Shown here: piece by piece, positions 1-15,828 of the stretch
Layout of the letters: the number at the start of each line of letters is the position of its first letter
Position numbering within the stretch: the first letter of the stretch is position 1
UHGV virus genome: UHGV-0120322
Direction: 5' to 3' (one strand)
Origin: a virus
DNA: 16,129 nt
Position numbers and translations under genes: made by a program
The notes under the pieces: model-generated
Told to the model about the DNA's origin: nothing
Seen by the model: the letters and a program-made list of their open reading frames with translations, nothing else
The model's database searches: none

Positions 1-34
1 TGGGCCGCAGGTTCGAATCCTGCAGGGCGCGCCA
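1..34 (+). tRNA. argU: 3' end of tRNA-Arg (T-arm and acceptor 3' strand ending GCGCGCCA); partial, window starts inside the gene; prophage attL overlaps it
   Basis: Sequence GGTTCGAATCC (T-loop) followed by acceptor 3' strand and CCA; recognised as the argU 3' end which is the known DLP12 integration site; integrase gene immediately adjacent. Confidence 0.8.
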
Positions 35-49
35 TTACAATTCAATCAG

Positions 50-1213
50 TTACGCCTTCTTTATATCCTCCATAATTCCAGAGTGGGACATATTTGGGAC
101 ATTATCACCAAAAATGTCGTCTATTTTCCTCGCATGCTCTGTCAAATGATTAGGCGCAAGGTGAGCATACCTACGAACCATTTCTATGGACTCCCATCCG
201 CCCATTTCCTGAAGCACTGATAATGGGACGCCTGACTGAATCAGCCAGCTTGCCCAGGTGTGTCTGAGGTCATGGAAACGGAAATCTTCAATTCCTGCAC
301 GACGACAAGCTGATAGCCATGATGTCTTGCTGTCGATGCGCATCTTCCTGACCGCAGGCGTTGATGTTCCATCTGCTCGCTTAGCCGCCTTGGTATGTAC
401 AAACACCCATTTGTGATGCTTGCCTATTTGATCACGCAACACTTTACAGGCGGTATCGTTCAGCGCCACACCAATGGCGCGGTTTGATTTGCTCTCTTCT
501 GGATTCACCCAGGCAACTCGTCGCTGCATGTCGATTTGTTGCCATTCCAGATTTATGATGTTCGACTTTCTCAGACCAGTTGCCAGCGCAAACTTGACGA
601 CAGATTTCAGTGGTTCGGGGCACTCATCAATAAGGCGTTTTGCTTCCTCCTTTTCCAGCCATCTGACTCGCTTGTTTCTGACCGCTGGTATCTTGATGAC
701 AGGCGCTTTTTCCAGCCACTTCCAGTCGCGTTCTGCAGCACGGAGAATAGCCTTTATCATGGCAAGATGCTTTGCCTTTGTCTGAGTTGATACTGGCTTT
801 GGTTCATAAACAGGCAGTTCTTTACCTTTCCTGATGGCGGCCTGAACTTTCTGTTTCCATATTTCTTTCGTCTTTCTGTTATGCATTCTGCTTACAGCAG
901 AGTAAATCTTTGCCTCCGAGATATCTTTAAGCCTTATACCCTCAAAATGTTCAAGCCAGAACTCAATCCGGCTTTTATCTGAATCGAGAGATTTTTTATC
1001 AGCTTTTTCCTCAAGCCATCTTAGGCAGGCCTCTTCAAAAGTGACATCAGGTAAATCCCCTAGCTTTTCTACTCGCCAGAGTTCTGCTTTTCGCTTGTCG
1101 TGCAACTCCTGAGCTTGCCGCTTGTCCTTTGTGCCAAGAGATTCCTTAATTCGTTTCCCGCCCGGGAGCGAATACGAGGCATACCATATTTCATTTCTGC
1201 GGAAGAGTGACAT
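50..1213 (-). CDS. intD: Tyrosine site-specific integrase, P22/DLP12 type (387 aa)
   Basis: 387-aa ORF with C-terminal catalytic motifs (HDLRHTWAS...Y) typical of tyrosine recombinases; located next to tRNA-Arg; recognised as IntD-like. Confidence 0.95.
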
Positions 1214-1440
1214 TTTCTTTCCTCTGTTATGCCATCACCCGCGCTCACCTGGACAGTATGCAGCGGAGACTGAAGCGCCGCAATGCAGGCTTGCCGTGTT
1301 GTGAGGTAAGGAGATTTTGGCTTGGTTGGATCTTTACGTGTTGCCTGTAGGCGGCCTGTTCGTATCCAGTTGGTGGCGGTTGGTCTGGATATCTTAAGAA
1401 ACTGACAGGCCTCATCGAGTGTGAGGCTGTATGATTCCAT
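1069..1440 (-). CDS. xis: Excisionase (Xis), P22 type; start taken at [31 protein letters not shown], overlaps the 5' end of int
   Basis: N-terminal helix-turn-helix-like excisionase motif; position directly upstream of int on same strand; frame open to 1069 so 3' end overlaps int by about 145 nt; exact C-terminus uncertain. Confidence 0.6.
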
Positions 1441-1690
1441 GGTTACCTCTGCTTTTTGAACGCATGTCACGTAACTTCTTAATGTGTTCTGCCGTTTCGA
1501 TCTCTTCTGCTATCCGATCTGCATCAGCTTTATTCACAGGTTCAAAGTCATGATTAAAGCGGAACATGCTGGCGATACATGTTCTGCCTTTTCGGATGTA
1601 GTGAACTTTGTTGTGGGTAGAACGCAGGATTTTGCAGGGAGTGCCGTGGTGGTCGACGTACCAGGTGTTAGGGTAAATCACTCTGAACAT
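1412..1690 (-). CDS. Hypothetical small phage protein (92 aa)
   Basis: ORF in tight head-to-tail overlap with xis and the upstream gene, typical of phage early-left accessory operons; no family recognised. Confidence 0.5.
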   Translation of the reverse strand: MFRVIYPNTWYVDHHGTPCKILRSTHNKVHYIRKGRTCIASMFRFNHDFEPVNKADADRIAEEIETAEHIKKLRDMRSKSRGNHGIIQPHTR

Positions 1691-2003
1691 TCTTGACCTT
1701 GTGTTGTGCGGATTGATATTCAGTGCTGATATTCACCTTTATAGCGAACACCTTTACCGGTTTATCGCCAAAGTGTGGATGTGTGATTGTCTTCACTTCA
1801 TATCCGTCATACGGAACATCAATTCTGCGACTGGAATCGTCGCGCTTCGGATATCCCTTTGTGATAATCAGGCGGTCATACTCCCGGAACATAATTCGCT
1901 TATTCCAATAGTCATTACACAGGCGATACTCCTCCGTTTTCTCTCCGCGAATCATGGCATCGAAAAATTCACTTTTAACAGGAAGTTGCAGGTTAGCCAT
2001 CAC
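1668..2003 (-). CDS. Hypothetical phage protein (111 aa), possibly ASCH/PUA-like fold
   Basis: ORF with 4-nt ATGA overlap to the upstream TraR-like gene; motif FFDAMIRGEKTEEYR is reminiscent of ASCH-type domains (weak recognition only). Confidence 0.5.
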   Translation of the reverse strand: MMANLQLPVKSEFFDAMIRGEKTEEYRLCNDYWNKRIMFREYDRLIITKGYPKRDDSSRRIDVPYDGYEVKTITHPHFGDKPVKVFAIKVNISTEYQSAQHKVKNVQSDLP

Positions 2004-2221
2004 TTAATCCCCCTTTGTTTGCGGATAAGCTCCAGATCTTGCTGGCAACTGGCGCAAGTTCGACAACCCTGAACGGCTAGGCGTCTTCGTTCATCTATCG
2101 GATCACCACACTCACAACAATGAGTGGCAGATACAGCCAGGTGGTTCAGGCGGCGCATTTTTATTGCTGTGTTGCGCTGTAATTCTTCTATTTCTGATGC
2201 TGAATCAATGATGTCTGCCAT
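2000..2221 (-). CDS. TraR/DksA-family C4 zinc-finger protein (73 aa)
   Basis: CxxC...(17 aa)...CxxC spacing (CCECGDPIDERRRLAVQGCRTCASC) characteristic of TraR/DksA C4 zinc fingers; common in lambdoid early-left regions. Confidence 0.7.
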   Translation of the reverse strand: MADIIDSASEIEELQRNTAIKMRRLNHLAVSATHCCECGDPIDERRRLAVQGCRTCASCQQDLELIRKQRGIK

Positions 2222-2273
2222 CTTCCATTAATCCCTGAATTGTTGGTTAATACGCTTGAGGGTGAATGCGAAC

Positions 2274-2300
2274 AATAAAAAAGGAGCCTGTAGCTCCCTG
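2274..2300 (-). terminator. Candidate intrinsic terminator for leftward transcription (stem GGAGC/GCTCC followed by U-run on minus strand)
   Basis: Minus-strand reading CCTCAGGGAGCTACAGGCTCCTTTTTTATTG: GC-rich hairpin plus T6 tract, in the 98-bp gap between two minus-strand genes. Confidence 0.45.
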
Positions 2301-2319
2301 AGGATTTTGCTTTTCATGT

Positions 2320-2601
2320 TCACCGTTCCTTAAAGGCGCCGTTTAACATACCGATTGCCAGACTTAAATGAGTCGGTGTGAATCCCATCAGCGTTACCGT
2401 TTCGCGGTGCTTCTTCAGTACGCTACGGCAAATGTCATCGACGTTTTTATCCGGAAACTGCTGTCTGGCTTTTTTGATTTCAGAATTAGCCTGACGGGCA
2501 ATGCTGCGAAGGGCGTTTTCCTGCTGAGGTGTCACTGAACAAGCCCCATGTCGGCAAGCATAAGCACACAGAATATGAAGCCCGCTGCCAGAAAAATGCA
2601 T
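2320..2601 (-). CDS. Hypothetical protein at the lambda orf61 position (93 aa from first ATG; true start may be internal)
   Basis: ORF directly downstream of the orf63-like gene; Cys/His-rich N-terminus without clear RBS, so start uncertain (in-frame GTG at codon 23 is an alternative). Confidence 0.45.
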   Translation of the reverse strand: MHFSGSGLHILCAYACRHGACSVTPQQENALRSIARQANSEIKKARQQFPDKNVDDICRSVLKKHRETVTLMGFTPTHLSLAIGMLNGAFKER

Positions 2602-2611
2602 TCAGTGGTTG

Positions 2612-2803
2612 TCATACCTGGTCTCTCTCATCTGCTTCTGCTTTCGCCACCATCATTTCCAGCTTTTGTGAAAGGGATGCGGCTAACGTATGAAATTCTT
2701 CGTCTGTTTCTACTGGTATTGGCACAAACCTGACTCCAATTTGAGCAAGGTTATGTGCCATCTCAATACTCGTTCTTAACTCAACAGGAGATGCTTTGTG
2801 CAT
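2612..2803 (-). CDS. Lambda orf63-like small protein (63 aa)
   Basis: 63-aa ORF with strong SD (GGGAGG 5 nt upstream of ATG); same size and position (second gene downstream of exo) as lambda orf63. Confidence 0.6.
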   Translation of the reverse strand: MHKASPVELRTSIEMAHNLAQIGVRFVPIPVETDEEFHTLAASLSQKLEMMVAKAEADERDQV

Positions 2804-2964
2804 ACCGCCTCCCGTTTATTATTTATCTTCTCAGCCAGCCGCTGTGCTTTCAGTGGATTTCTGATAACAGAAAGGCCGGGAAATACCCAGCCTCGCTTTG
2901 TAACGGAGTAGACGAAAGTGATCGCGCCTACCCGGATATTATCGTGAGGATGCGTCATCGCCAT
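2776..2964 (-). CDS. Lambda orf60a-like small protein (62 aa), start overlaps the 3' end of exo
   Basis: ORF starting 10 nt inside the end of exo with GGGGAG SD-like sequence; position equivalent to lambda orf60a. Confidence 0.4.
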
Positions 2965-3635
2965 TGCTCCCCAAATACAAAACCAATTTCAGCCAGTGCC
3001 TCGTCCATTTTTTCGATGAACTCCGGCACCATCTCGTTAAAACTCGCCATGTACTTTTCATCCCGCTCAACCACGACATAATGCAGTCCTTCACGCTTCA
3101 TACGCGGGTCATAGTTGGCAAAGTACCAGGCATCTTTTTGTGTCACCCACATGCTGTACTGCACCTGGGCCATGTAAGCCGATTTTATGGCCTCGAAACC
3201 ACCGAGCCGGAACTTCATGAAATCCCGGGAGGTAAACGGGCATTTCAGTTCAAGGCCGTTGCCGTCACTGCATAAACCATCGGGAGAGCAGGCGGTGCGC
3301 ATACTTTCGTCGCGATAGATGATCGGGGATTCAGTAACATTCACGCCGGAAGTGAACTCAAAGAGGGCTCTGGCGTCGTTCTCGTACTGTTTTCCCCAGG
3401 CCAGCGCCTTAGCGTTAACTTCCGGAGCCACACCGGTGCAAACCTCGGCAAGCAGGGTGTGGAAGTAGGACATTTTCATGTCAGGCCACTTCTTTCCGGA
3501 GCGGGGTTTTGCTATCACATTGTGAACTTCTGAAGCGGTGATGACGCCGAGCCGTAATTTGTGCCATGCATCATCCCCCTGTTCGACAGCTCTCACGTCG
3601 ATCCCGGTACGCTGCAGGATAATGTCCGGTGTCAT
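2955..3635 (-). CDS. exo: Lambda exonuclease, Red-alpha (226 aa), full length
   Basis: Translation [40 protein letters not shown]... recognised as essentially identical to phage lambda Exo over its full length. Confidence 0.97.
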
Positions 3636-4417
3636 GCTGCCACCTTCTGCTCAGTGGCTTTCTGTTTCAGGAATCCAAGAGCTTTCACTGCTTCGGCCTG
3701 TGTCAGTTCTGACGATGCGCGAATGTCGCGGCGAAATATCTGGGAACAGAGCGGCAATAAGTCGTCATCCCATGTTTTATCCAGGGCGATCAGCAGAGTG
3801 TTAATTTCCTGCATGGTTTCATCGTTAACCGGAGTGATGTCGCGTTCCGGCTGACGTTCTGCAGTGTATGCGGTATTTTCGACAATGCGCTCGGCTTCAT
3901 CCTTGTCATAGATACCCGCAAATCCGAAGGCCAGACGGGCACACTGAATCATGGCTTTATGCCGTAACATCCGTTTGGGATGCGACTGCCACGGTCCGGT
4001 GATTTCTCTGCCTTCGCGGGTTTTGAATGGTTCGCGGCGGCATTCATCCATCCACTCGGTAACGCAGATCGGATGATTGCGGTCTTTGCGGTAAATCCGG
4101 CATGTGCAGGATTCGTTGTCCTGTTCAAAGTTCATGCCGTCAAACTGCTGGTTTTCGTTGATGATGCGGGACCAGCCATCAACGCCCACCACCGGAACGA
4201 TGCCGTTCTGCTTATCAGGGAAGGCGTAAATTTCTTTCGTCCACGGATTAAGGCCGTACTGGTTGGCGACGATCAACAATGCGATGAACTGCGCATCGCT
4301 GGCATCACCTTTAAATGCCGTCTGGCGAAGAGTGGTGATCAGTTCCTGTGGGTCGACAGAATCCATGCCGACACGTTCAGCCAGCTTCCCAGCCAGCGTT
4401 GCGAGTGCTGTACTCAT
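3632..4417 (-). CDS. bet: Lambda Bet, Red-beta single-strand annealing protein (261 aa), full length
   Basis: Translation [59 protein letters not shown]... recognised as lambda Bet; ATGA overlap with exo. Confidence 0.97.
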
Positions 4418-4422
4418 CCGTT

Positions 4423-4533
4423 TTATACCTCTGAATCAATATCAACCTGGTGGTGAGCAATGGTTTCAACCATGTACCGGATGTGTTCTGCCATGCGCTC
4501 CTGAAACTCAACATCGTCATCAAACGCACGGGT
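4423..4533 (-). pseudogene. gam: gam fragment: only the C-terminal ~36 codons of lambda Gam ([36 protein letters not shown]) are present
   Basis: C-terminal 36 aa match lambda Gam; the N-terminal 48 aa of the 84-aa ORF (4423..4677) are unrelated and encoded antisense to P; junction at about 4531-4534. Confidence 0.85.
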
Positions 4534-5137
4534 ACAACAGGTAGCGCAGATCATCAATGGTGTGTTCAGCCAGTTACTGGCAACTTTCCCGGCGAGCCTG
4601 GCTAACCGGGACCAGAACGAACTGAACGAAATCCGCCGCCAGTGGGTTCTGGCTTTCCGGGAAAACGGGATCACCACGATGGAACAGGTTAACGCAGGAA
4701 TGCGCGTAGCCCGTCGGCAGAATCGACCATTCCTGCCATCACCCGGGCAGTTTGTTGCCTGGTGCCGGGAAGAAGCATCCGTTACCGCCGGGCTGCCAAA
4801 CGCCAGCGAGCTGGTTGATATGGTTTACGAGTATTGCCGGAAACGTGGCCTGTATCCAGATGCAGAGTCTTATCCGTGGAAATCAAACGCGCACTACTGG
4901 CTGGTTACCAACCTGTATCAGAACATGCGGGCCAATGCGCTGACTGATGCGGAATTACGGCGCAAGGCTGCCGATGAACTGGCCTGTATGACAGCGCGAA
5001 TTAACCGTGGTGAGGCGATACCTGAACCAGTAAAACAACTTCCTGTCATGGGCGGGAGACCGCTTAATCGTGTTCAGGCTCTGGCGAAGATCGCAGAAAT
5101 CAAAGCGAAGTTTGGGCTGAAAGGAGCAAGTGTATGA
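4532..5137 (+). pseudogene. peaD: Replication protein P, 5'-truncated (lacks about the first 30-40 codons and its own start/RBS); equivalent to peaD of DLP12
   Basis: Frame translates as [30 protein letters not shown]...KAKFGLKGASV, matching lambda P from about residue 33 to the C-terminus; no ATG or SD at the 5' end. Confidence 0.9.
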
Positions 5138-5427
5138 CGGGCAAAGAGGCAATTATTCATTACCTGGGGACTCATAAGAACTTCTGTGCGCAGGACGTTG
5201 CCGCGGTAACAGGCGCAACAGTAACCAGCATAAATCAGGCTGCGGCTAAAATGGCGCGGGCAGGAATCTTGGTCATTGATGGTAAGGTCTGGCGAACGGT
5301 GTATTACAGATTCGCTACCAGGGAAGAACGGGAAGGAAAGGTGAGCACTAACCTGATTTTTAAGGAGTGTCGCCAGAGTGCCGCGATGAAGCGGGTGTTG
5401 ATGGTTTGGGGGAGGGTAGGGGTATGA
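5134..5427 (+). CDS. ren: Ren (lambda Ren homolog, 97 aa)
   Basis: MTGKEAIIHYLGTH...VTSINQAAAKMARAG...VWRTVYYRFATREEREGK recognised as lambda Ren; ATGA overlap with P stop. Confidence 0.9.
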   Translation: MTGKEAIIHYLGTHKNFCAQDVAAVTGATVTSINQAAAKMARAGILVIDGKVWRTVYYRFATREEREGKVSTNLIFKECRQSAAMKRVLMVWGRVGV

Positions 5428-5624
5428 GCATGATGGATTTCGCAGAAACTAAAAAGGCTATCGACGCCATCACAACCGACTGGTCTATCCGAGGACCGTA
5501 TCACGAAGACGACGGGAAATATTACGCCTTGCTTCGTGGAGAGTGGGTTGGTGGCGGGTATATCGGAAAACGGAAAGCCCTTGATGCCATTCTCGAAAAG
5601 TTAATCCAGGAGGCCGCCCAATGA
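5424..5624 (+). CDS. Hypothetical small phage protein (66 aa), nin-region equivalent
   Basis: ATG with GGGAGGGTAGGGG upstream, ATGA overlap with ren stop; in frame with ORF-track entry 5367..5624. Confidence 0.55.
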   Translation: MSMMDFAETKKAIDAITTDWSIRGPYHEDDGKYYALLRGEWVGGGYIGKRKALDAILEKLIQEAAQ

Positions 5625-5851
5625 GCAACATCGACAAACCAATGACAAACCGTGAACTGGTGGATGCCGCCATTGAATTGGCCGGAGAGTTTTATGCGAT
5701 GCAGGGCTATTCGCATCGTCCTGGCTTCAAGTATTGGCAATCTCCGCACCCGCATGAGCGCCTGTGCTTTGAAATGGCTTGTGTGGCATTCGAAACCATT
5801 CGCGGCTCAGATGTAATGGACGCCGTATCTGAGTTGGAGGATGAAGAATGA
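5621..5851 (+). CDS. Hypothetical small phage protein (76 aa), N-terminus MSNIDK
   Basis: AGGAGG SD 7 nt upstream, ATGA overlaps on both sides (translational coupling). Confidence 0.55.
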   Translation: MSNIDKPMTNRELVDAAIELAGEFYAMQGYSHRPGFKYWQSPHPHERLCFEMACVAFETIRGSDVMDAVSELEDEE

Positions 5852-5964
5852 GCAACATCGACAAACGCGCATTACGTGAAATCGCTGAGGCAGCAGTTGG
5901 TGCACATGAGCGCCTTAGTGTTATGCCGCCTGATGACATTTTCGATATCTCACTGGCAGAATGA
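5848..5964 (+). CDS. Short ORF (38 aa) with MSNIDK N-terminus; probably the N-terminal part of a larger gene interrupted by in-frame TGA at 5962-5964
   Basis: GGAGG SD 7 nt upstream of ATG; same reading frame as the 5965..6261 ORF, which has no SD or ATG of its own. Confidence 0.4.
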   Translation: MSNIDKRALREIAEAAVGAHERLSVMPPDDIFDISLAE

Positions 5965-5991
5965 ACTCAGCTTGATGCAGATATCACTGCC

Positions 5992-6261
5992 TTGAACGCG
6001 CTGAACTCCGCAGCCAACCCAGCCACAGTGCTGGCGCTGCTGGATGAGCTGGAAGCCAAAGACCAGAGGATTGCTGTGCTGACCGAATCGCTCAAGCAGA
6101 CGGTTTCAGGATACAAATCCTGCCTGCGTACCGGACATGAGCGCATTCTTGACCTTGGCGGTGACTGTGACGCGCCCAAAGTGATGATTGCAGGCAATCC
6201 TGACATTCAGCAGGCGCAGAAGCTGATCGCCGCCGCATCCGGTAAAGGAGAGGCATCATGA
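5992..6261 (+). CDS. Hypothetical phage protein, C-terminal part; frame open from 5965 and contiguous with 5848..5964 across a single TGA
   Basis: ORF-track entry with TTG start and no SD; 3' end overlaps the next gene start (ATGA), so it sits in a translationally coupled chain. Confidence 0.5.
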   Translation: MNALNSAANPATVLALLDELEAKDQRIAVLTESLKQTVSGYKSCLRTGHERILDLGGDCDAPKVMIAGNPDIQQAQKLIAAASGKGEAS

Positions 6262-6821
6262 GCACTATTACCAAACAATGGCTGCAGCAGAAAATTGCCG
6301 ACATGGAAGCAGCCAGAGATGAAATCCCGTTCGGTCTGGACGAAGGCGACAGCAACACGCTGGCGGCACTGCGTATCGCGCTGGCATCGCTCGAAGCGGA
6401 GCCTGCCATTCACCGGTGGCGTCGTGTGACCTCTGAGCCATACGGCCCCTATCCTTGGCATTATGGTGATTTTATCGGCTTCTCAAAGCCCGTTGATGGG
6501 ATTGAGGATGAGTATTTTTACTCCGCCCCGCCAGAGCCAGCCAATGCCGAAACCGTAGCCTGGCTGTGGTCACACAGGAAACACCCGAGCGAAGTCACGC
6601 TTGTTCGCCCTGAAGATGATGAGAGAGCGGAGGGTGCTCACTGGTCTGGCTGGAGTTGTCAGGCGCTTTATGCAGCACCGCCAGTTCCGGTATCTGTGCC
6701 CACATTCGAGAAATGGTGTGAGTTGACTGAGCAGAAACCTGTCGGATGGGTGCGTGATGCTATGAAAGAAGCGTATGACGGATGCCGCGACGCCATGCTT
6801 CAGGGTGCCGAAAAAGCCTAG
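6258..6821 (+). CDS. Hypothetical phage protein (187 aa)
   Basis: AAGGAG SD upstream of ATG; ATGA overlap with upstream ORF; no family recognised. Confidence 0.6.
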   Translation: MSTITKQWLQQKIADMEAARDEIPFGLDEGDSNTLAALRIALASLEAEPAIHRWRRVTSEPYGPYPWHYGDFIGFSKPVDGIEDEYFYSAPPEPANAETVAWLWSHRKHPSEVTLVRPEDDERAEGAHWSGWSCQALYAAPPVPVSVPTFEKWCELTEQKPVGWVRDAMKEAYDGCRDAMLQGAEKA

Positions 6822-6833
6822 TCGCCCACCACC

Positions 6834-7064
6834 ATGCAGACCGCGCCAGCCCTAGATTCTTCGCCAAAAATTTCCGAGTCGCCCGTCAGCAACTCTCCGG
6901 TGATTCCGGATGGTTGGGTGCTGGTTCCTAAGGAGCCAACTCCAGAAATGCGTGAGGCGTACCATCAGGCGCAGGAAGAGTGTGAAGATGGCGGTGGATT
7001 ATGGAGCCCAGACCACCAATGGAAGGCCATGATCGCAGCAGCACCGCAGCAGGAGGCGAAGTGA
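6834..7064 (+). CDS. Hypothetical ORF (76 aa) in the same frame as 6258..6821, separated only by a TAG and four sense codons; possibly a 3' extension of that gene
   Basis: No SD upstream of the ATG; same frame as the preceding gene. Confidence 0.4.
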   Translation: MQTAPALDSSPKISESPVSNSPVIPDGWVLVPKEPTPEMREAYHQAQEECEDGGGLWSPDHQWKAMIAAAPQQEAK

Positions 7065-7115
7065 TTATGTCGTGACAGCATAATTGCGATGTCAACGATA
7101 AGCAGAGGTTTGAAA

Positions 7116-7310
7116 ATGAAATCACAATCACCAGTGCAGCATGAAGTTAACATCGACGGCAAAGAGTATGTTGTCACAGTAGTCCAAACCGGCAAGTCAA
7201 CGTGGAGGGCATGGGGAGATTCCTGGGGGCGCCATATAGTCGAAACAGGTTCTAGCGAACATAGCGCGCTTTCTCATTGGAAAGCAAAAGCTTTAGTTAT
7301 GAATGGGTAG
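7116..7310 (+). CDS. Hypothetical small protein (64 aa), start at MKSQSPVQ
   Basis: GAGGT SD 6 nt upstream of ATG at 7116; the earlier ATG at 7089 has no SD. Confidence 0.5.
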   Translation: MKSQSPVQHEVNIDGKEYVVTVVQTGKSTWRAWGDSWGRHIVETGSSEHSALSHWKAKALVMNG

Positions 7311-7333
7311 CGCGGAAACTTTGAAGGTATAAT

Positions 7334-7359
7334 CCCCTCAAATAATCGAGGGGGTTTTT
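7334..7359 (+). terminator. Hairpin CCCCTC-N8-GAGGGG followed by TTTTT; intrinsic terminator or attenuator immediately abutting the next start codon
   Basis: GC-rich 6-bp stem plus T5 run; a perfect TATAAT hexamer sits at 7328-7333 just upstream; the 3' arm doubles as the only SD-like sequence for the 7360 ATG. Confidence 0.5.
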
Positions 7360-7869
7360 ATGTCTGGTTGGGATAACGGTATAGATGCAGTTTCTGCGAT
7401 TGCAGCTATCGCATCTGCGGTAGCAACTTATTTAGCATGGCGATCCTCAGAAGCTAGCAGGGCCACATCCGAAAAAGCTTTGCAGTTGCAAGGAAAGCAG
7501 TATTTGTACGAGACATTAAAAGCTTGCGCTGAGAGAGCGAATTCATACTCAAAAGGAAAGAAAGGGGCTGACTGGAGCTTTCATGACGCAGCCAATATTG
7601 TTCGATGTTTGAACATGGCAATGGGGAGCATAATAAATTACTCAGATACCAACAATCAGGATGCAATGAAAGGTCTGAAGCAATTCTTTATTAGCCAATT
7701 AAACATGGAGCTTTTTGAAGAGCTCAACTATGAGGTTGGGCCTGATGCCTTCTTTCACGGAGAGGAGCTAACCAGCATGACGAGCGATATTTACTCGCAG
7801 TGGTTAAACATTATTTCATTCTTTAACCTCATGATTGTCACAGATGATGACCTCGCCGATGAAACATAG
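7360..7869 (+). CDS. Hypothetical AT-rich moron protein (169 aa) with an N-terminal hydrophobic helix (IDAVSAIAAIASAVATYLAW)
   Basis: Long ORF with visibly lower GC than the flanking nin genes, its own upstream hairpin and TATAAT; no family recognised. Confidence 0.65.
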   Translation: MSGWDNGIDAVSAIAAIASAVATYLAWRSSEASRATSEKALQLQGKQYLYETLKACAERANSYSKGKKGADWSFHDAANIVRCLNMAMGSIINYSDTNNQDAMKGLKQFFISQLNMELFEELNYEVGPDAFFHGEELTSMTSDIYSQWLNIISFFNLMIVTDDDLADET

Positions 7870-8056
7870 CTTGATTGATTTTCCATAATCAACCCGCCAT
7901 AATCATGTCATCGGAGCCTGAACAACTCCGGTGACTTCTGCGCTAAACGGGGACGTTTATGCGCACATACAATCCAAACTCTCTTCTCCCTTCACAGATG
8001 CAGAAATGCACCTGCAATTCTTTGCATCTAGCGTTTGACCTCTGCGGAGGTGAAGC

Positions 8057-8512
8057 GTGAACCTCCCACAAGACGGTATCAAATTGCATCGCGGTAACTT
8101 CACCGCTATCGGTCAGCAGATCCAGCCTTATCTGGAGGACGGAAAATGCTTTCGCATGGTGCTTAAACCGTGGCGCGAGAGACGCAGTCTTTCCCAGAAT
8201 GCACTCAGCCACATGTGGTACAGCGAAATCAGCGAATACCTCATCAGCAGGGGGAAAACGTTCGCTACTGCAGTATGGGTAAAAGATGCACTCAAACACA
8301 CTTATCTCGGTTATGAAACCAAAGAACTGGTTGATGTCGTAACCGGTGAAATCACCACCATTCAGTCATTACGTCATACCTCCGATCTCGATACCGGAGA
8401 GATGTATGTCTTCCTGTGTAAGGTTGAAGCCTGGGCGATGAATATTGGCTGCCACCTGACTATTCCGCAGAGCTGCGAGTTCCAGCTGCTGCGCGACAAG
8501 CAGGAGGCGTAA
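8057..8512 (+). CDS. ybcN: YbcN-like protein (151 aa; DLP12 DNA base-flipping protein family), GTG start
   Basis: Translation [19 protein letters not shown]... recognised as YbcN of DLP12; GGAGG SD upstream of GTG. Confidence 0.85.
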
Positions 8513-8682
8513 TGACTACACCGCTTATTCGTGTCATGAACGGACACATCTACAGAGTACCAAATCGTCGTAAGCGTAAGCCTGAGCTGAAGCCATCCGA
8601 AATACCAACACTGCTAGGGTATACCGCCAGCCTGGTTGATAAAAAATGGTTGCGACTGGCAGCAAGGAGGAATCATGGCTGA
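8512..8682 (+). CDS. ninE: NinE family protein (56 aa)
   Basis: Translation [56 protein letters not shown], basic NinE-type protein; TAATG overlap with ybcN; not in ORF track because under 60 aa. Confidence 0.8.
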   Translation: MTTPLIRVMNGHIYRVPNRRKRKPELKPSEIPTLLGYTASLVDKKWLRLAARRNHG

Positions 8683-8965
8683 TTTGAGAAAAGCAGCGCG
8701 TGGTCGGGAATGCCAGGTAAGAATCCCTGGCATATGTAATGGCAACCCTGAAACGTCTGTACTGGCACATATCCGGCTGGCTGGATTGTGCGGCACCGGT
8801 ACCAAACCGCCAGACCTGATTGCCACCATTGCATGTTCTGCCTGTCACGATGAGATCGACCGTCGCACGCATTTTGTTGACGCTGGATATGCAAAAGAAT
8901 GCGCGCTGGAAGGTATGGCGAGAACACAGGTTATGTGGCTGAAAGAGGGGGTTATTAAGGCGTGA
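8675..8965 (+). CDS. ybcO: YbcO-like protein (96 aa; DUF1364, Cys-rich putative nuclease)
   Basis: Start at [37 protein letters not shown]... with AAGGAGG SD; recognised as YbcO of DLP12. Confidence 0.85.
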
Positions 8966-9324
8966 ATACCTACAGCATCACATTACCCTGGCCTCCGAGC
9001 AATAATCGCTATTACCGCCATAATCGCGGGCGCACGCACGTCAGCGCAGAGGGACAGGCATACCGCGATAACGTCGCTCAAATCATTAAAAACGCAATGC
9101 TGGATATCGGCCTGGCTATGCCAGTGAAAATCCGCATTGAGTGTCACATGCCGGATCGCCGTCGCCGTGACCTGGATAATCTGCAAAAAGCCGCTTTTGA
9201 CGCACTCACCAAAGCAGGTTTCTGGCTGGATGATGCTCAGGTCGTTGATTATCGCGTTGTGAAGATGCCCGTTACCAAAGGTGGGAAGCTGGAGCTGACC
9301 ATCACTGAACTGGGAGATGAATGA
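8962..9324 (+). CDS. rusA: RusA Holliday-junction resolvase (120 aa)
   Basis: Translation [37 protein letters not shown]... recognised as RusA; GTG start overlapping ybcO stop. Confidence 0.95.
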
Positions 9325-9461
9325 TGTTTGAGTCTTATATGGCAGAACTTCTTCGCCACCGTTGGATGCGCCTGCGCTTATATCGTTTCCCCGGTTCTGT
9401 TTTGACCGATTACCGGATACTGAAAAATTACGCCAAAACGCTGACAGTAACAGGCGTATGA
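9321..9461 (+). CDS. ylcG: YlcG-like small protein (46 aa)
   Basis: [46 protein letters not shown]; ATGA overlap with rusA stop; recognised as DLP12 ylcG. Confidence 0.7.
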
Positions 9462-9546
9462 AGTCAGAGATAACGACCGGTTGATACCGTTTTATTGATT
9501 TTTGCTGGCAATTGTCATGCTGGTCTGATTTTTGTGGAGAAAGTTG

Positions 9547-9930
9547 ATGCGTGATATTCAGATGGTTCTTGAGCGTTGGGGGGCATGGGCGGCTAATAAC
9601 CATGAGGATGTGACCTGGTCGTCCATTGCTGCCGGTTTTAAGGGATTGCTTCCTTCAAAAGTAAAATCCCGTCCGCAATGCTGTGATGATGACGCGATGA
9701 TCGTTTGCGGGTGCATGGCCCGTCTGAAAAAGAACAACAGCGATTTGCACGATTTATTAGTGGATTATTATGTCGGCGGTATGACATTCATGTCACTGGC
9801 AAGTAAGCATCGTTGCTCTGATGGTTATATCGGGAAAAAGTTACAGAAGGCTGAGGGAATAATTGAAGGGATGTTAATGGCATTAGATATCCGGTTAGAG
9901 ATGGATATCGTTGTTAATAACTCTAATTAA
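9547..9930 (+). CDS. quuD: Late-gene antiterminator Q (phage 21/82-type, QuuD-like, 127 aa)
   Basis: Start at [24 protein letters not shown]... with GGAGAAAG SD; Cys-rich centre ([12 protein letters not shown]) typical of Q-family zinc-binding antiterminators. Confidence 0.85.
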
Positions 9931-9956
9931 TACGCCAATTATTTACTAAAAGTTAT

Positions 9957-9981
9957 TAAAAATGGGGCGTTGAAACGCCCC
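9957..9981 (-). terminator. Hairpin GGGGCG-TTGAAA-CGCCCC with U-tract on the minus strand; likely terminator for leftward (nmpC-direction) transcription, protecting Q from antisense read-through
   Basis: Perfect 6-bp GC stem; A-tract on plus strand 5' side equals T-run downstream on minus strand. Confidence 0.45.
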
Positions 9982-10108
9982 CAAAAATAAAGGGTAATAT
10001 ATAACAGAAGGTTTGTATAGTTAGAAGCAAGGTTGTGCTTCTAAAGGAAGTGGCTTGAGGGAGCCACTTATATGTTGGGGAGGCAAAGCCTCCCACAACA
10101 TATCTTTT
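9964..10108 (+). promoter_or_regulatory. Late regulatory region downstream of Q: candidate pR'-type promoter (TTGAAA at 9970, TAATAT at 9995, 19-bp spacer) and three hairpins (10024-10041, 10050-10067, 10070-10103 plus CTTTT), the last a candidate tR'-like terminator
   Basis: Position immediately 3' of Q as in lambdoid phages; stem-loops read directly from sequence; promoter hexamers are weak and spacing is suboptimal. Confidence 0.35.
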
Positions 10109-10118
10109 AGTAATCAAA

Positions 10119-11201
10119 TTAGAACTGGTAAACCATACCTACAGCAACGATATCATCGGTAGCAACGCCAGATGCTTTCGTGAAATCGCTCTTATCAATC
10201 AGGTTGATTTTGTAGTCAACAAAAGTGGACATATTTTTGTTGAAGTAATAGGTTGCACCTACATCAACATATTCAACCAGGTCCTGATCACCCCAAACAC
10301 CCAAGTCTTTTCCTTTAGAATGCAGGTAAGCAACGGATGGACGCAGGCCGAAGTCGAACTGATATTGTGCAACAGCTTCGAAGTTTTGTGCTTTGTTGGC
10401 AATATGGTTATTACCAAAAACAGTCATGTTCTGGGTTTCAGAATAGGTGGTGGCCAGATAGATGTTGTTCGCATCATATTTCAGACCAGCTGCCCATACT
10501 TCAGCATTTTGACCAGAAGCATTCAGACCGTTGTTACCGTAGATAACCTGATTATTAGTGCGATCAGATTTAGCATAGGTTGCACCCACGCCGAATCCTT
10601 CATACTCATAAGTAGTTGAGAAACCGAAACCATCGCCATTAGCTTCAGTTACTTCTTTTCGGTCATTTTTGCCCTGATACTGAGCTGCAAAGTTCAGGCC
10701 ATCAACCAGACCAAAGAAGTCGTTGTTACGATAAGTTGCAACACCTGTGGTGCGACCAGTCATGAATACATCTGTTTGGGTCCAGGTATCGCCACCGAAT
10801 TCTGGCAGAACGTCGGTCCATGCACCAATATCGTATGCTACACCGTAGTTACGGCCATAATCGATGGAGCCGTAGTCACCGAATTTCAGGCCAGCGAAGG
10901 CAAGACGGGTTTTATCTTTGGAGGAACCTTGAGATTCAGCGCGGTTGCCTTTGAATTCATATTCCCACTGACCGAAACCAGTCAGTTGATCGTTGATTTG
11001 GGTTTCACCTTTGAAGCCAAGACGGGCATAAGTAGTATCACCATCATCTGCATCATTAGAGGAGAAGTAGTGCTTAGCATTAACTTTCCCGTACAGATCC
11101 AGCTTGTTACTGTCTTTATTATAAATTTCAGCTGCCTGAGCAGACATCGCCATCAGTACTGATGCAGCTACAGCAGAAATTGCCACTGTTAATTTTTTCA
11201 T
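10119..11201 (-). CDS. nmpC: Outer-membrane porin, OmpC/NmpC (Lc) family, intact (360 aa with signal peptide [23 protein letters not shown])
   Basis: Classic general-porin sequence ending in the C-terminal aromatic residue (...VGMVYQF); encoded antisense between Q and the lysis genes as in DLP12/PA-2. Confidence 0.95.
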
Positions 11202-11790
11202 CGTGAGCCCTTTTTTTTGAACTATTATTAAAAAATGATGTCACTGCGCGATAAATATTCATCTAATCAATGTGATTATTTCAAGATGTAAGTTTTGGTT
11301 TCTCGTTTAATTTGTGAAGTAGATCTCTATTTTTATCTGAACTTTTTTCTATCGAATCCTATTCATGGCTCTTGGCTGAATAAAAATAAATCTATTAGCC
11401 AATTTATATTAATGGCTGTTATTTATGGGGGGTCTATAATTCGATGGTTTAATTTAAATTAACTAAAAATAACGCCGGAAATTATTTATTGGTTATTTGT
11501 TGAGGTTTTCTTATGTATTTGTGGTGGTGTTTTGAACACTCGGTAGCATTCTCATAAATATCATTCAGTGGTTTACGTACGTAAAAAATTGGTTATGCTG
11601 TTAAGAGTGGTTACTTCGTCACACAGCTTAAACCCGCCGTCGAGCTGGTTTTTCCATTTTTTGAGTCTCGATATTAGCTGATAACTCAATACCTGAGTTA
11701 TTCACTGACTCCGAGTCTGTTACGTTTCTGCTTTTTTGCGATACGTTGTATTCCCTCAATTTACACCCGCTTTGTCTGCGAGGTGGGGTT

Positions 11791-12006
11791 ATGAAATCCA
11801 TGGATAAGTTAACAACGGGTGTCGCCTATGGCACCTCAGCAGGTAGTGCCGGTTACTGGTTTTTACAGCTGCTCGATAAAGTCACGCCCTCACAGTGGGC
11901 AGCAATAGGTGTGCTGGGTAGCCTGGTATTTGGCCTGCTGACGTACCTGACAAACCTTTATTTCAAGATTAAAGAAGATAAGCGCAAGGCTGCGAGAGGT
12001 GAATAA
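11791..12006 (+). CDS. essD: Class II holin (phage 21 S-type pinholin, 71 aa) with dual-start motif MKSM
   Basis: [71 protein letters not shown], two TM segments; GAGGTGG SD; the upstream in-frame ATG at 11746 lacks an SD. Confidence 0.9.
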
Positions 12007-12503
12007 TGCCTCCATCATTACGAAAAGCAGTTGCTGCTGCTATTGGTGGCGGAGCAATTGCTATAGCATCAGTGTTAATCACTGGCCCAAGTGGTGACGA
12101 TGGCCTGGAAGGTGTCAGCTACATACCATACAAAGATATCGTTGGCGTATGGACTGTATGTCACGGACACACCGGAAAAGACATCATGCTCGGTAAAACG
12201 TATACCGAAGCAGAATGCAAAGCCCTCCTGAATAAAGACCTTGCCACGGTTGCCAGACAAATTAACCCGTACATCAAAGTCGATATACCGGAAACAACGC
12301 GCGGCGCTCTTTACTCGTTCGTCTACAACGTGGGTGCTGGCAATTTCAGAACATCGACGCTTCTTCGCAAAATAAACCAGGGTGATATTAAAGGCGCATG
12401 TGATCAGCTACGGCGCTGGACATACGCTGGCGGTAATCAATGGAAAGGACTGATGACTCGCCGTGAGATTGAGCGTGAAGTCTGTTTGTGGGGGAAACAA
12501 TGA
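12006..12503 (+). CDS. rrrD: SAR endolysin (phage 21 R-type lysozyme, 165 aa)
   Basis: N-terminal Gly/Ala-rich signal-anchor-release segment ([20 protein letters not shown]) followed by a lysozyme domain; immediately after the holin. Confidence 0.95.
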
Positions 12504-12958
12504 GCAGAGTAACCGCGATTATCTCCGCTCTGGTTATCTGCATCATCGTCTGCCTGTCATTGGCTGTTAATCATTACCGTGATAACGCAATCGCCTACAA
12601 AGAGCAGCGCGATAACAAGGCCAGTGAACTGGAGAAGGCGAACGCCACCATCGCTGACATGCGGAAGCGTCAACGTGATGTAGCAGAACTCGACGCAAGA
12701 TACACAAAGGAGCTTGCTGATGCTAACGCGACTATCGAAAGTCTCCGTGCTGATGTTTCTGCTGGGCGTAAGCGCCTGCAAGTCGCCGCCACCTGTGCAA
12801 AGTCAACGACCGGAGCCAGCGGCATGGGCGATGGAGAAAGCCCAGGACTTACAGCAGATGCTGAACTCAATTATTACCGTCTCCGAAGTGGAATCGACAA
12901 GATAACCGCGCAGGTTAACTACCTGCAGGAATACATCAGGACGCAATGCCTGAAATAA
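12500..12958 (+). CDS. rzpD: Rz i-spanin (inner-membrane spanin subunit)
   Basis: ATGA overlap with endolysin stop; N-terminal TM helix ([20 protein letters not shown]) then coiled-coil-like periplasmic domain. Confidence 0.85.
12714..12905 (+). CDS. rzoD: Rz1 o-spanin lipoprotein embedded in the +1 frame of Rz (63 aa precursor; lipobox VSAC; proline-rich mature part)
   Basis: AAGGAG SD 7 nt upstream of ATG inside Rz; signal peptide plus lipobox Cys, then [12 protein letters not shown]. Confidence 0.8.
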
Positions 12959-12989
12959 TTTTTTTGCAAATCACAAAGTCCATTTAATG

Positions 12990-13014
12990 AGCCTCGCGAT
13001 GCGGGGCTTTTTTT
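12990..13014 (+). terminator. Intrinsic terminator after the lysis cassette (AGCCTCGC-GAT-GCGGGGCT followed by T7)
   Basis: 8-bp stem with one G-U pair, 3-nt loop, immediately followed by TTTTTTT, 32 nt after the Rz stop. Confidence 0.65.
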
Positions 13015-13163
13015 ACATCTGAATTTCACAGCGCATCTCACGCGCATATTACATCACCCGAGCCTTTCAGAAAGTTGAGCCTGAGAACTGCCGTATATGG
13101 TGGCGACCATCTCGGGGCGGCTTTTCTGTGAGACAGGCTCACTTTCTAAAAGGTAAAGACGCT

Positions 13164-13652
13164 ATGAACCAATTAGAAGAAAAGCTTCAAAGAATGATTT
13201 CCTTATACAAGGAAGATAACTGCCAAAAAGTTCCTGAAAACATCGCAGAGTTAATGGAATTGGCAAGTGAATTTTCTGGCATGCTTAAGTCGTCAGGTGT
13301 TCGGTCAGCGTTCTTTGTTGAAATGCTGATGCACGGCGGACTTATGGCAACAATGAGACGTGTAATGGAAGACCAGAGAAAAGAACCTCCTCAGGTATAC
13401 GTTTTGTCATCGAAGAAAACTGGGCTAACCAAAATTGGGTATTCATCCAACATTCCACAACGCATCAAATCGCTTGGCAACTCTGGACCAGACTGCTTGA
13501 AGCTTGAGTGCCTGATCCCTGGTGGAAGAGAAACTGAAAACATGCTTCATCGCAAATTTGCCGCAAAGAGAAAGCACGGTGAATGGTTCGCCCTGTCCAA
13601 GGATGACATTGAGGGATTGAAATCTGTAGCGATTACTTCTGATGGCTATTAA
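13164..13652 (+). CDS. GIY-YIG superfamily / T5orf172-domain protein (162 aa): helical N-terminal region plus C-terminal T5orf172-like nuclease-fold domain
   Basis: C-terminal motifs VYVLSSKKTGLTKIGYSSN ... R ... E ... GEWF match the T5orf172 (GIY-YIG-like) pattern; AAGG SD; sits where lambda carries bor; lower GC than the lysis genes. Confidence 0.7.
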   Translation: MNQLEEKLQRMISLYKEDNCQKVPENIAELMELASEFSGMLKSSGVRSAFFVEMLMHGGLMATMRRVMEDQRKEPPQVYVLSSKKTGLTKIGYSSNIPQRIKSLGNSGPDCLKLECLIPGGRETENMLHRKFAAKRKHGEWFALSKDDIEGLKSVAITSDGY

Positions 13653-14120
13653 TGCTTGTTTAGAGCAATTTTCATAACAACTCTTCATTACAAAGCCCAT
13701 CTACTGGTGGGCTTGATAATGAAACCGTGATTTACATCCCCACAATCCGGGTATGTAAAAGATAGTTCAGGCGAGAACGGATTTAACTAAATCTGTGCGC
13801 CACCAGTTAACGGCAGTACCACGAAACAACCCAAGCCAGTAAGTGGGGAAATAACACCGGCAGCCACTGAAAGATGAACCTCCTGCCTTATGGCAAAAAA
13901 GATTCTTTGTGGTGGCGGACTGATGGAAAGACATCCTAATTTCAGCCAAACATTGAAGGAGTTGTTATGTCAGCAGAAGGTTTCAATAACCCATCAAAAT
14001 TCCGGGATGAGTGGGATAGCAGCGTAAAGAGTAAGTGATGCCATCACAAAAGCCATTCCCTACAGAGTGGCTTTGATAATGGCTTATACCCTACACGGGA
14101 TAACTTAACTGATATCCCTT

Positions 14121-14285
14121 TTAAAGGATAAAGGTATTCAAGCCTGACACATCATGCGCTGTATCGTCGCCGTATTCCCGTATTAACAGAGACCGTAGCC
14201 CGACGGGGAACTCCTTCTGCGCGAGTGTGCGGGAATAATCAAAAACGATGCACACCGGGGTTACCGGGTACACATATTTCATCAT
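14121..14285 (-). CDS. Possible small ORF (54 aa, MMKYVYPVTPVCIVFDYSRTLAQKEFPVGLRSLLIREYGDDTAHDVSGLNTFIL); uncertain
   Basis: Protein-like composition in a GC-rich patch, but no clear SD; under 60 aa so absent from the ORF track. Confidence 0.2.
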   Translation of the reverse strand: MMKYVYPVTPVCIVFDYSRTLAQKEFPVGLRSLLIREYGDDTAHDVSGLNTFIL

Positions 14286-15420: not shown

Positions 15421-15648
15421 ATGGAAGTCAACAAAAAGCAGCTGGCTGACATTTTCGGTGCGAGTATCCGTACCATTCAGAACTGGCAGGAACAGGGAAT
15501 GCCCGTTCTGCGAGGCGGTGGCAAGGGTAATGAGGTGCTTTATGACTCTGCCGCCGTCATAAAATGGTATGCCGAAAGGGATGCTGAAATTGAGAACGAA
15601 AACCCGGCATCTGATGCCGTTAACGATTTGCTGAACACACCAGTGTAA
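15421..15648 (+). pseudogene. Terminase small subunit Nu1, N-terminal ~60 codons only, fused in frame to an unrelated 15-codon tail
   Basis: MEVNKKQLADIFGASIRTIQNWQEQGMPVLRGGGKGNEVLYDSAAVIKWYAERDAEIENE matches lambda Nu1 (winged-helix DNA-binding domain); the remainder NPASDAVNDLLNTPV does not. Confidence 0.85.
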
Positions 15649-15657
15649 GGGATGTTT

Positions 15658-15828
15658 ATGACGAGCAAAGAAACCTTTACCCATTACCAGCCGCTGGGCA
15701 ACAGTGACCCGGCTCATACCGCAACCGCGCCCGGCGGATTGAGTGCGAAAGCGCCTGCAATGACCCCGCTGATGCCGGATAAGTGGTGTGTAAATTCTAG
15801 CCCCATCATCTGTGTTTTTTTTCATTAA
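15658..15828 (+). pseudogene. Head decoration protein D fragment (first ~39 codons of lambda gpD, then unrelated sequence to a stop)
   Basis: [39 protein letters not shown] matches the lambda gpD N-terminus; diverges after PLM. Confidence 0.8.

Follow-up and report, generated by a model that had tools for sequence, protein, structure and literature searches.

How the lambda genes exo and bet, which serve recombination, come to survive complete in a cryptic prophage that has lost the control region in front of them, and whether they are preserved or transcribed there, is the question raised by the stretch of DNA analyzed here, UHGV virus genome UHGV-0120322 (16,129 nucleotides, hereafter the window). 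Because its left end is 99.8% identical and its right arm 91–95% identical to K-12 DLP12, the window is, judging from these alignments, a decayed DLP12 allele inserted at argU. The left-end match spans positions 1–1308 (argU 3′ end, intD, and xisD; K-12 564766–566073), and the right-arm match spans 7875–12769 (ylcH/ybcN to rzpD), with the gene order ybcN-ninE-ybcO-rusA-ylcG-quuD, porin, essD-rrrD-rzpD and Pfam assignments to RusA, antiterminator Q, and porin. The element is defective: strain LR-25 has a repressor-to-P segment that is missing here, and comparison with NCTC9112 places deletions of head and tail genes at 15601/2 and 15779/80. No Rfam family reached its gathering score anywhere in the window. 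A first-pass annotation had described the element as enriched for recombination functions; ybcN (a homologue of Orf), ybcO, and rusA are standard nin-region genes of this prophage family, K-12 DLP12 included, and do not bear that description out. Feature coordinates are collected in Table 1.

Table 1. Features of the window that bear on the exo-bet region, in window coordinates.
Feature	Position	Strand	Description
argU 3′ 34 nt	1–34	+	tRNA gene; left prophage end
Integrase intD	50–1213	-	PF00589; left prophage end
orf63 (DUF1382)	2612–2803	-	Pfam; colinear with lambda, in the leftward operon after exo
orf60a (DUF1317)	2776–2964	-	Pfam; colinear with lambda, downstream of exo in the leftward operon
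Terminator-like hairpin 3′ of exo	2872–2894	-	Consensus scan only
exo (lambda exonuclease, Red-alpha)	2955–3635	-	Complete 226-aa ORF, ATG start
bet (Red-beta single-strand annealing protein)	3632–4417	-	Complete 261-aa ORF, ATG start
gam remnant	4423–4534	-	Last 36 codons and stop, no start codon of its own; its 112 nt are identical to the lambda gam 3′ end
Chimeric 84-aa ORF	4423–4677	-	GTG start; 47 codons antisense to P plus gam tail; probably not a gene
Shine-Dalgarno GAGG of bet	4428–4431	-	10 nt 5′ of the ATG, inside the gam remnant; direct reading
Deletion junction	4531–4534		GGTA microhomology; gam ...CACGGGTA / CAACAGGTAGCG... P; overlapping BLAST ends against lambda, LR-25, and NCTC9112
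P remnant	4535–5137	+	P from about codon 33; PF06992 (Phage_lambda_P); aligns with lambda from 39677 onward
ren	5134–5427	+	Aligns with lambda ren and K-12 renD
Terminator-like hairpin 3′ of porin	9981–9964		
Intact nmpC-type porin	10119–11201	leftward	Next leftward gene upstream of bet

The first-pass annotation had called exo and bet complete, in their normal overlapping arrangement, and potentially functional, and precise alignment to lambda (NC_001416) agrees with it. The bet stop and exo start share 4 bp (ATGA), which is the native lambda arrangement, and this coupling overlap as well as the ribosome-binding sites are intact. In codon alignments neither gene contains an indel. For exo there are 19 nucleotide and 6 amino acid differences (T90A, R166Q, N168D, I189V, D200N, and I202M), leaving 220 identical residues among the 226 aligned, and for bet there are 26 nucleotide and 2 amino acid differences (D96N and A255T). 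The codons that differ are mostly synonymous (13/19 in exo and 23/25 in bet). At the protein level, Exo matches the Pfam YqaJ family (PF09588, E = 2e-30) and, over all 226 residues, lambda exonuclease in the PDB (6M9K/1AVQ, E = 1e-153). Residues R28, D119, E129, and K131 are all kept; from published lambda Exo structures we take the last three to be catalytic and R28 to belong to the 5′-phosphate pocket. Bet matches Pfam RecT (PF03837) over residues 24–183 (E = 2e-33). Its N-terminal DNA-binding/annealing domain is present (residues 1–178 match PDB 7UJL, E = 9e-122), as is the C-terminal domain that binds Exo and SSB in Red-beta (residues 182–261 match 8TFU/6M9K chain D), in which A255T is the only change from lambda. 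Since the pair cannot be distinguished from alleles of fuller, presumably active prophages, Exo and Bet would very probably work if they were made. Lambda Bet alone is enough for oligonucleotide recombination, while recombination of double-stranded DNA requires both Exo and Bet and is less efficient when Gam is missing.

What lies in front of the two genes is the product of a deletion. By BLAST, window 2010–4534 is colinear with lambda 30402–32927 (96.7% identity) and window 4531–5400 with lambda 39677–40546 (93.4% identity). The parental sites read ...CACGGGTA^ATGG in gam and ...GCAGGTA^CAGCAGG in P. The deletion amounts to 4,298 bp (∼4.3 kb) in LR-25 and 6.7 kb in lambda coordinates. In lambda terms, it would have removed the rest of gam, kil, cIII, ea10, ral, sieB, N, pL, rex, cI, cro, cII, O with ori, and the start of P. 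Most of gam is indeed gone, as had been noted, and the Pfam Gam match of what is left covers profile positions 61–98 only. The gam tail is also part of a chimeric ORF whose exact sequence is absent among ∼15 billion predicted proteins. On the other side of the junction, the longest ORF of the P remnant (the equivalent of K-12 peaD) starts from a GTG at 4562, encodes 191 residues, and has no pR; ren, which carries an IS3 in K-12 (renD), is free of that insertion here. The loss extends beyond the list first drawn up, which had named pL, N, and most of gam: because P begins only at about codon 33 to the right of the junction, O, the origin, and the start of P are missing as well. That the upstream control region has been deleted holds good, and every upstream early-left signal is certainly gone. 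The specific naming of pL and N, on the other hand, was an analogy with lambda. In LR-25 the interval absent from the window contains the 5′ part of gam, kilR, a lipoprotein gene, an S24 repressor, ydaS- and ydaT-like genes, O, and P codons 1–32; this early region is Rac-like, and no N homologue was found in it. Some other prophages at the argU/intD locus (L028) do have a lambda-type N-sieB-ral-cIII-kil region.

LR-25, the closest undeleted relative at the same locus, also indicates how old the deletion is. It is 99.78% identical to the window over positions 1–4534, with 10 differences in 4.5 kb: none in exo and seven in bet, one of which changes an amino acid. Contigs with the exact Exo protein number at least 999 and those with the exact Bet protein 135; in most cases the prophage still has gam, kilR, the repressor, O, and P. 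The intactness of the two genes requires no special cause because the deletion is young, with exo DNA the same as in LR-25 and both exact proteins common in fuller prophages. Their survival had been read as preservation of a recombineering module; the identity of exo to that of an undeleted relative means that there has been too little time for decay, and intactness in this allele reflects a recent deletion without demonstrating selection for retention.

Nine of the 10 differences from LR-25 cluster at 3788–4525 beside the junction, as would be expected of a mosaic tract. Such a tract could mean that exo and bet, neutral for the host, undergo repeated recombination with lambdoid phages, infecting or co-resident, that renews or uses them. 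Lambda recombines readily with DLP12 sequences (PMC3945230), and similar exo-bet DNA is found in about 3,976 of 5,426 complete E. coli genomes. Gene flow of this kind is nevertheless compatible with the genes being silent relics, to which it merely adds a route of maintenance, and the region bears no direct sign of conversion after the deletion; we regard it as an unlikely explanation in its own right.

The exact junction was found in none of the 5,426 complete RefSeq E. coli genomes and in neither the GTDB representative genomes nor IMG/VR. A metagenome scaffold (ERZ28619540 scaffold_55) is 100% identical to the window over 12.4 kb and is the only full-length identical record found, which might suggest that the junction is an assembly chimera of metagenome scaffolds and that the real prophage is undeleted. 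We consider this highly improbable. The junction-specific 191-residue P ORF is present on eight contigs from several sources, five of them with the gene order of the window, and the junction shares a TA-type microhomology with junctions in finished genomes including that of K-12. The allele is real but rare (∼5 contigs).

Since nothing recognizable transcribes exo and bet in the window, we infer that they are most likely silent or expressed at the level of noise. The first-pass annotation had left room for a fortuitous promoter at the junction or for transcription from the chimeric gam ORF, and neither idea gains support from the sequence. A consensus scan detected no minus-strand sigma-70-like site in 2600–6000. 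In a position weight matrix scan of the 1.6 kb upstream of bet the best site scored 7.5 bits, which is not above background: a score of 7 bits or more occurs at 242 sites in the window, and lambda pL and pR score 13 bits. A promoter 5′ of bet, created by the junction or lying antisense to the rightward genes, thus remained at background in both scans. All ORFs from 4562 to 9930 point away from bet. Read-through from the leftward porin was considered as another source of transcripts and set aside, as the gene is followed by a terminator-like hairpin and then by 5.7 kb of antisense sequence before bet is reached. Lack of a sigma-70 consensus is not proof that there is no transcription, and weak, alternative-sigma, or pervasive antisense promoters may lie inside the P remnant or ren. 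Comparable genes in known cryptic prophages behave as silent copies: expression of DLP12 rusA and ybcN needs insertions that supply a promoter (PMC4118853), and Rac recET stays silent until sbcA mutations activate it or lambda captures it (PMC3945230).

An unrecognized antisense promoter in the P remnant or ren is also what a selected function for the pair would call for. On that reading the module has been domesticated, with selection keeping Exo and Bet for RecA-independent recombination or repair through low or conditional expression. Complete genes, ribosome-binding sites, and coupling overlap would all fit, and so would the persistence of exo-bet beside independent truncations, namely IS1/gam′-bet-exo in one allele (L024) and exo-bet-gam/P′ in a remnant type found in seven complete genomes (L003-type), a pattern that could hint at some benefit. 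However, alleles at the argU/intD locus with deletions in the early region have usually lost exo-bet too. The bet gene is gone from K-12 (exo fragment only), REL606 (dam′/P′), TUM12357 (exo only), and L015/L016 (orf60a/P′), as well as from L020, L023, L026, L027, L033, L034, L036, and L038. As far as these allele sequences go, the pattern is no argument for preferential retention of exo-bet. In addition, 10 differences from the undeleted relative are too little divergence to test selection, the consensus and matrix scans found no promoter-like site, and the allele is missing from every complete genome searched. Domestication therefore strikes us as improbable.

Taken together, we think it likely that exo and bet in the window are silent relics, left without a promoter when a DLP12-type prophage recently suffered a deletion, and that they would be functional if expressed. 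A single recent illegitimate deletion between GGTA in gam and GGTA in P would account for the arrangement. It would have taken the early control and replication region in its entirety: the leftward early promoter and its operators, the repressor, cro-like genes, kil, most of gam, O with its origin, and the first ∼32 codons of P. What would be left is a 5′-truncated bet-exo operon that retains its ribosome-binding sites and translational coupling and now stands head to head with the rightward P remnant. Such a latent module might gain expression from a mutation that creates a promoter or from an IS insertion, as for recET of Rac and rusA of DLP12; alternatively, an incoming lambdoid phage might acquire bet-exo by recombination.

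The junction itself led to a separate observation on how these prophages are eroded. Setting 40-odd alleles against the fullest relative of each (LR-25, NCTC9112, and others) yielded 26 distinct IS-free deletion junctions (J1–J26), two of which (J17 and J26) are only partly resolved. Among the 24 that were tabulated, microhomologies containing TA were GGTA (J1, the window), TA seven times, GTA three times, and TAC, TAG, TAAC, GGTAC, and TATTCGT; one further junction reads ..GATA/TACTGG with both TAs retained. TA is thus part of the microhomology in 16 of the 20 junctions with at least 2 bp of it, compared with 4.2% of random position pairs with at least 2 bp (binomial p about 4e-19), and J25, the 25th junction, likewise shares TA. 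The same end points recur, exact to the nucleotide, and may lie on either side of a junction. The P site of the window (4531–4535, GCCGCAGG-TA-CAGCAGG) has at least seven different partners, among them gam (window), exo (TUM12357), orf60a (L015/L016), a site near xis (L042/L043), and an e14-type ymfQ gene (ML35), and as a left end it is joined to two sequences on its right (L046 and L051). Seven other sites were each used two or three times, and 19 coincident end-point pairs were counted where ∼1 is expected among TA sites (p about 3e-18). Site B of the TA junctions is GCCGCAGGTACAGCAGG. The flank consensus is weak and asymmetric (G at -2 in 14/20 sites, C/G at -4 and +3, G at +4), and partner sites share no similarity beyond the microhomology.

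None of several explanations tried for the TA junctions was borne out. Splice-like GT...AG ends, IS1 pseudo-ends (GGTAATG), and terminal inverted repeats in the deleted segments fit J1 only. Type II restriction sites with TA overhangs would need a common 4- or 6-mer, and none was found. A serine recombinase with a TA crossover was set aside since no TA-type inversions turned up, only IS1-associated strand switches. Pseudo-att sites for IntD would fit few cases, as the argU T-stem motif GCAGGT is present at three sites and missing from most, and the cos-like similarity of site D is limited to some alleles. No relevant description of TA-specific illegitimate recombination or of prophage deletion hot spots was found in the literature. 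We tentatively suggest that the deletion that orphaned exo-bet may belong to a TA-centered family that reuses a few hot sites, pointing to enzyme-driven, site-selective prophage erosion in E. coli, a proposal that we rate as plausible and somewhat short of probable. Possible agents include a TA-specific transposase, recombinase, or nuclease making or resolving 2-nt staggered breaks at G-N-TA; an integrase acting on pseudo-sites (the three with GCAGGT); a type IA topoisomerase, with C at -4 on one strand in 15/20 sites; or a polymerase-slippage hot spot. Because the sample is small, comes from a single prophage family, and was collected opportunistically, this regularity is a lead and not a result. 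Were it confirmed, it would carry more weight than the exo-bet allele, as the decay of E. coli prophages would then owe its pattern to a specific molecular activity and not to random deletion at short homologies.

Taken by itself, the exo-bet allele is of little importance. Cryptic prophages whose intact phage recombination genes go unexpressed are already well known, roughly three in four complete E. coli genomes contain exo-bet homologues, and the main use of the allele is as a snapshot of DLP12 at an intermediate and ordinary stage of prophage decay. One practical caveat is that a Red system may lie dormant in natural isolates, where a single promoter mutation or IS insertion could turn it on.

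The window can be compared with several known systems, among them the lambda Red operon (gam-bet-exo, driven by pL with N antitermination). Its exo and bet are orthologous to those of lambda (97% nucleotide identity) and agree with them in length, 4-bp overlap, and bet ribosome-binding site; orf60a and orf63 follow downstream in both. Unlike lambda, however, the window has no promoter, operators, or antiterminator, its gam is reduced to 36 C-terminal codons, and the operon faces a truncated P head to head. A similar remnant was built on purpose in engineered recombineering strains of the DY330/DY380 type, in which a non-excisable prophage supplies chromosomal exo and bet as in the window; those strains keep pL, cI857, N, and gam and therefore have heat-inducible Red, whereas all four are missing here. 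K-12 DLP12 shares the attachment site, the integrase (99.8%), and the nin/Q/porin/lysis arm. As the first-pass annotation had said, it holds only a fragment of exo (exoD, 306 bp, window 2929–3234), in addition to 312 bp of P (from window about 4826). It has extra junctions, at 1308/2930 and 3234/4827 in window coordinates, that the window lacks, and it alone carries IS3 in ren, IS5 in nmpC, and the emrE-ybcK-ybcL-ybcM segment. The K-12 exo/P deletion spans the junction of the window, and therefore the two alleles are different products of decay; TUM12357 (int-exo-P′) is a possible precursor of the K-12 form. Finally, the window resembles recET of Rac and rusA of DLP12 in having intact phage recombination genes within a defective prophage and no promoter that could be found. 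The protein families differ (RecE/RecT in Rac and RusA in DLP12 as opposed to Exo/Bet in the window), and both of those systems become active through sbcA mutations or IS insertions (PMC3945230, PMC4118853).

The dinucleotide TA lies at the centre of 16 of the 20 DLP12-type prophage deletion junctions whose microhomology is 2 bp or longer, where the null is 4%; this sample is small, opportunistic and drawn from one prophage family, and it is best regarded as a lead. The loci concerned are L002, L003, L015, L016, L026, L027, L033, L034, L036, L038, L039, L042-L044, L046 and L051, and the corresponding sites in the window are listed in the table. A weak G-N-TA consensus flanks the junctions, and a few end points among them are reused exactly. 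The P-gene site, for example, has served at least seven times as a deletion end point, on the left or on the right side, with an e14-type ymfQ gene as one of its partners.

Coordinates of deletion-junction sites and other features in the window
Feature	Position	Strand	Description
Deletion-junction site, P gene	4531-4535
Deletion-junction site	2929-2931
Deletion-junction site	1308
Deletion-junction site	3234
Deletion-junction site	4826
Deletion-junction site	15601-15602
Deletion-junction site	15779-15780
nmpC-type porin gene, intact	10119-11201	-	360 aa, Porin_1
Terminator-like hairpin 3' of the porin gene	9981-9964
174-aa ORF	13128-13652	+	Counterpart of LR-25 gene annotated GIY-YIG / T5orf172 nuclease family

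The same P site recurs in strain TUM12357 (L039; NZ_CP134370, 2350-3607), where intD is followed by the K-12-type junction (1308 joined to 2930 in window coordinates), a nearly full exo, and a P remnant joined at that site (CCCGGTAC/AGCAGG, the slash marking the junction). One more exo-to-P deletion would yield the exoD-peaD arrangement of K-12, so K-12 DLP12 may derive from a TUM12357-type allele. Retention of bet-exo beside a truncation was found in two other independent cases. At L024 (GCA_052260915.1), gam carries an IS1 insertion and everything up to ybcO is deleted, while at L003, found in NZ_CP027550 and in six further complete genomes, a P remnant is fused to exo-bet-gam and truncated kilR through the junction ..GATA/TACTGG, in a remnant that lies elsewhere in the chromosome and lacks an integrase.

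Of the ten differences from LR-25 over the 4.5 kb compared, nine fall within window positions 3788-4525, the 740 bp adjoining the junction that comprise the gam stub together with the 5' half of bet. Judged from the sequence, this clustering suggests the boundary of a recombination tract near 3788. The early region varies among prophages with identical IntD integrase: that of LR-25 (L017, 5035-9332) is Rac-like, with kilR, an S24 repressor and ydaS/ydaT-like genes and without N, whereas that of L028 is lambda-like (N, sieB, ral, cIII, kil, cII). The window therefore does not reveal the immunity type of its ancestor.

At the right end, a 179-bp island (15601-15780) matches a stretch of NCTC9112 (L018, 27071-27249) that covers the last part of the S49 head protease gene and the beginning of the head-decoration gene. 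Since its neighbours are a truncated nohD (Nu1) on one side and the ybcY/tfaX region on the other, the morphogenesis genes were lost through two further deletions. The left junction reads GAAAA/CCCGG, and its nohD end point is common to a different deletion at L026 (GAAAA/CCCGA).

The 174-aa ORF lies within a 1.4-kb block (12770-14154) missing from K-12 and NCTC9112. Small ORFs occur at positions 5401-7874, between ren and ylcH/ybcN, two being Ea22-like in the matching metagenome locus; this segment is a mosaic substitution rather than a deletion. NCTC9112 is colinear here, whereas LR-25 carries a DUF4041/SNIPE nuclease and Bro-N, and K-12 carries emrE-ylcJ-ybcK-ybcL-ybcM. K-12 also differs in its nmpC-type porin gene, which is interrupted by IS5 but intact in the window.
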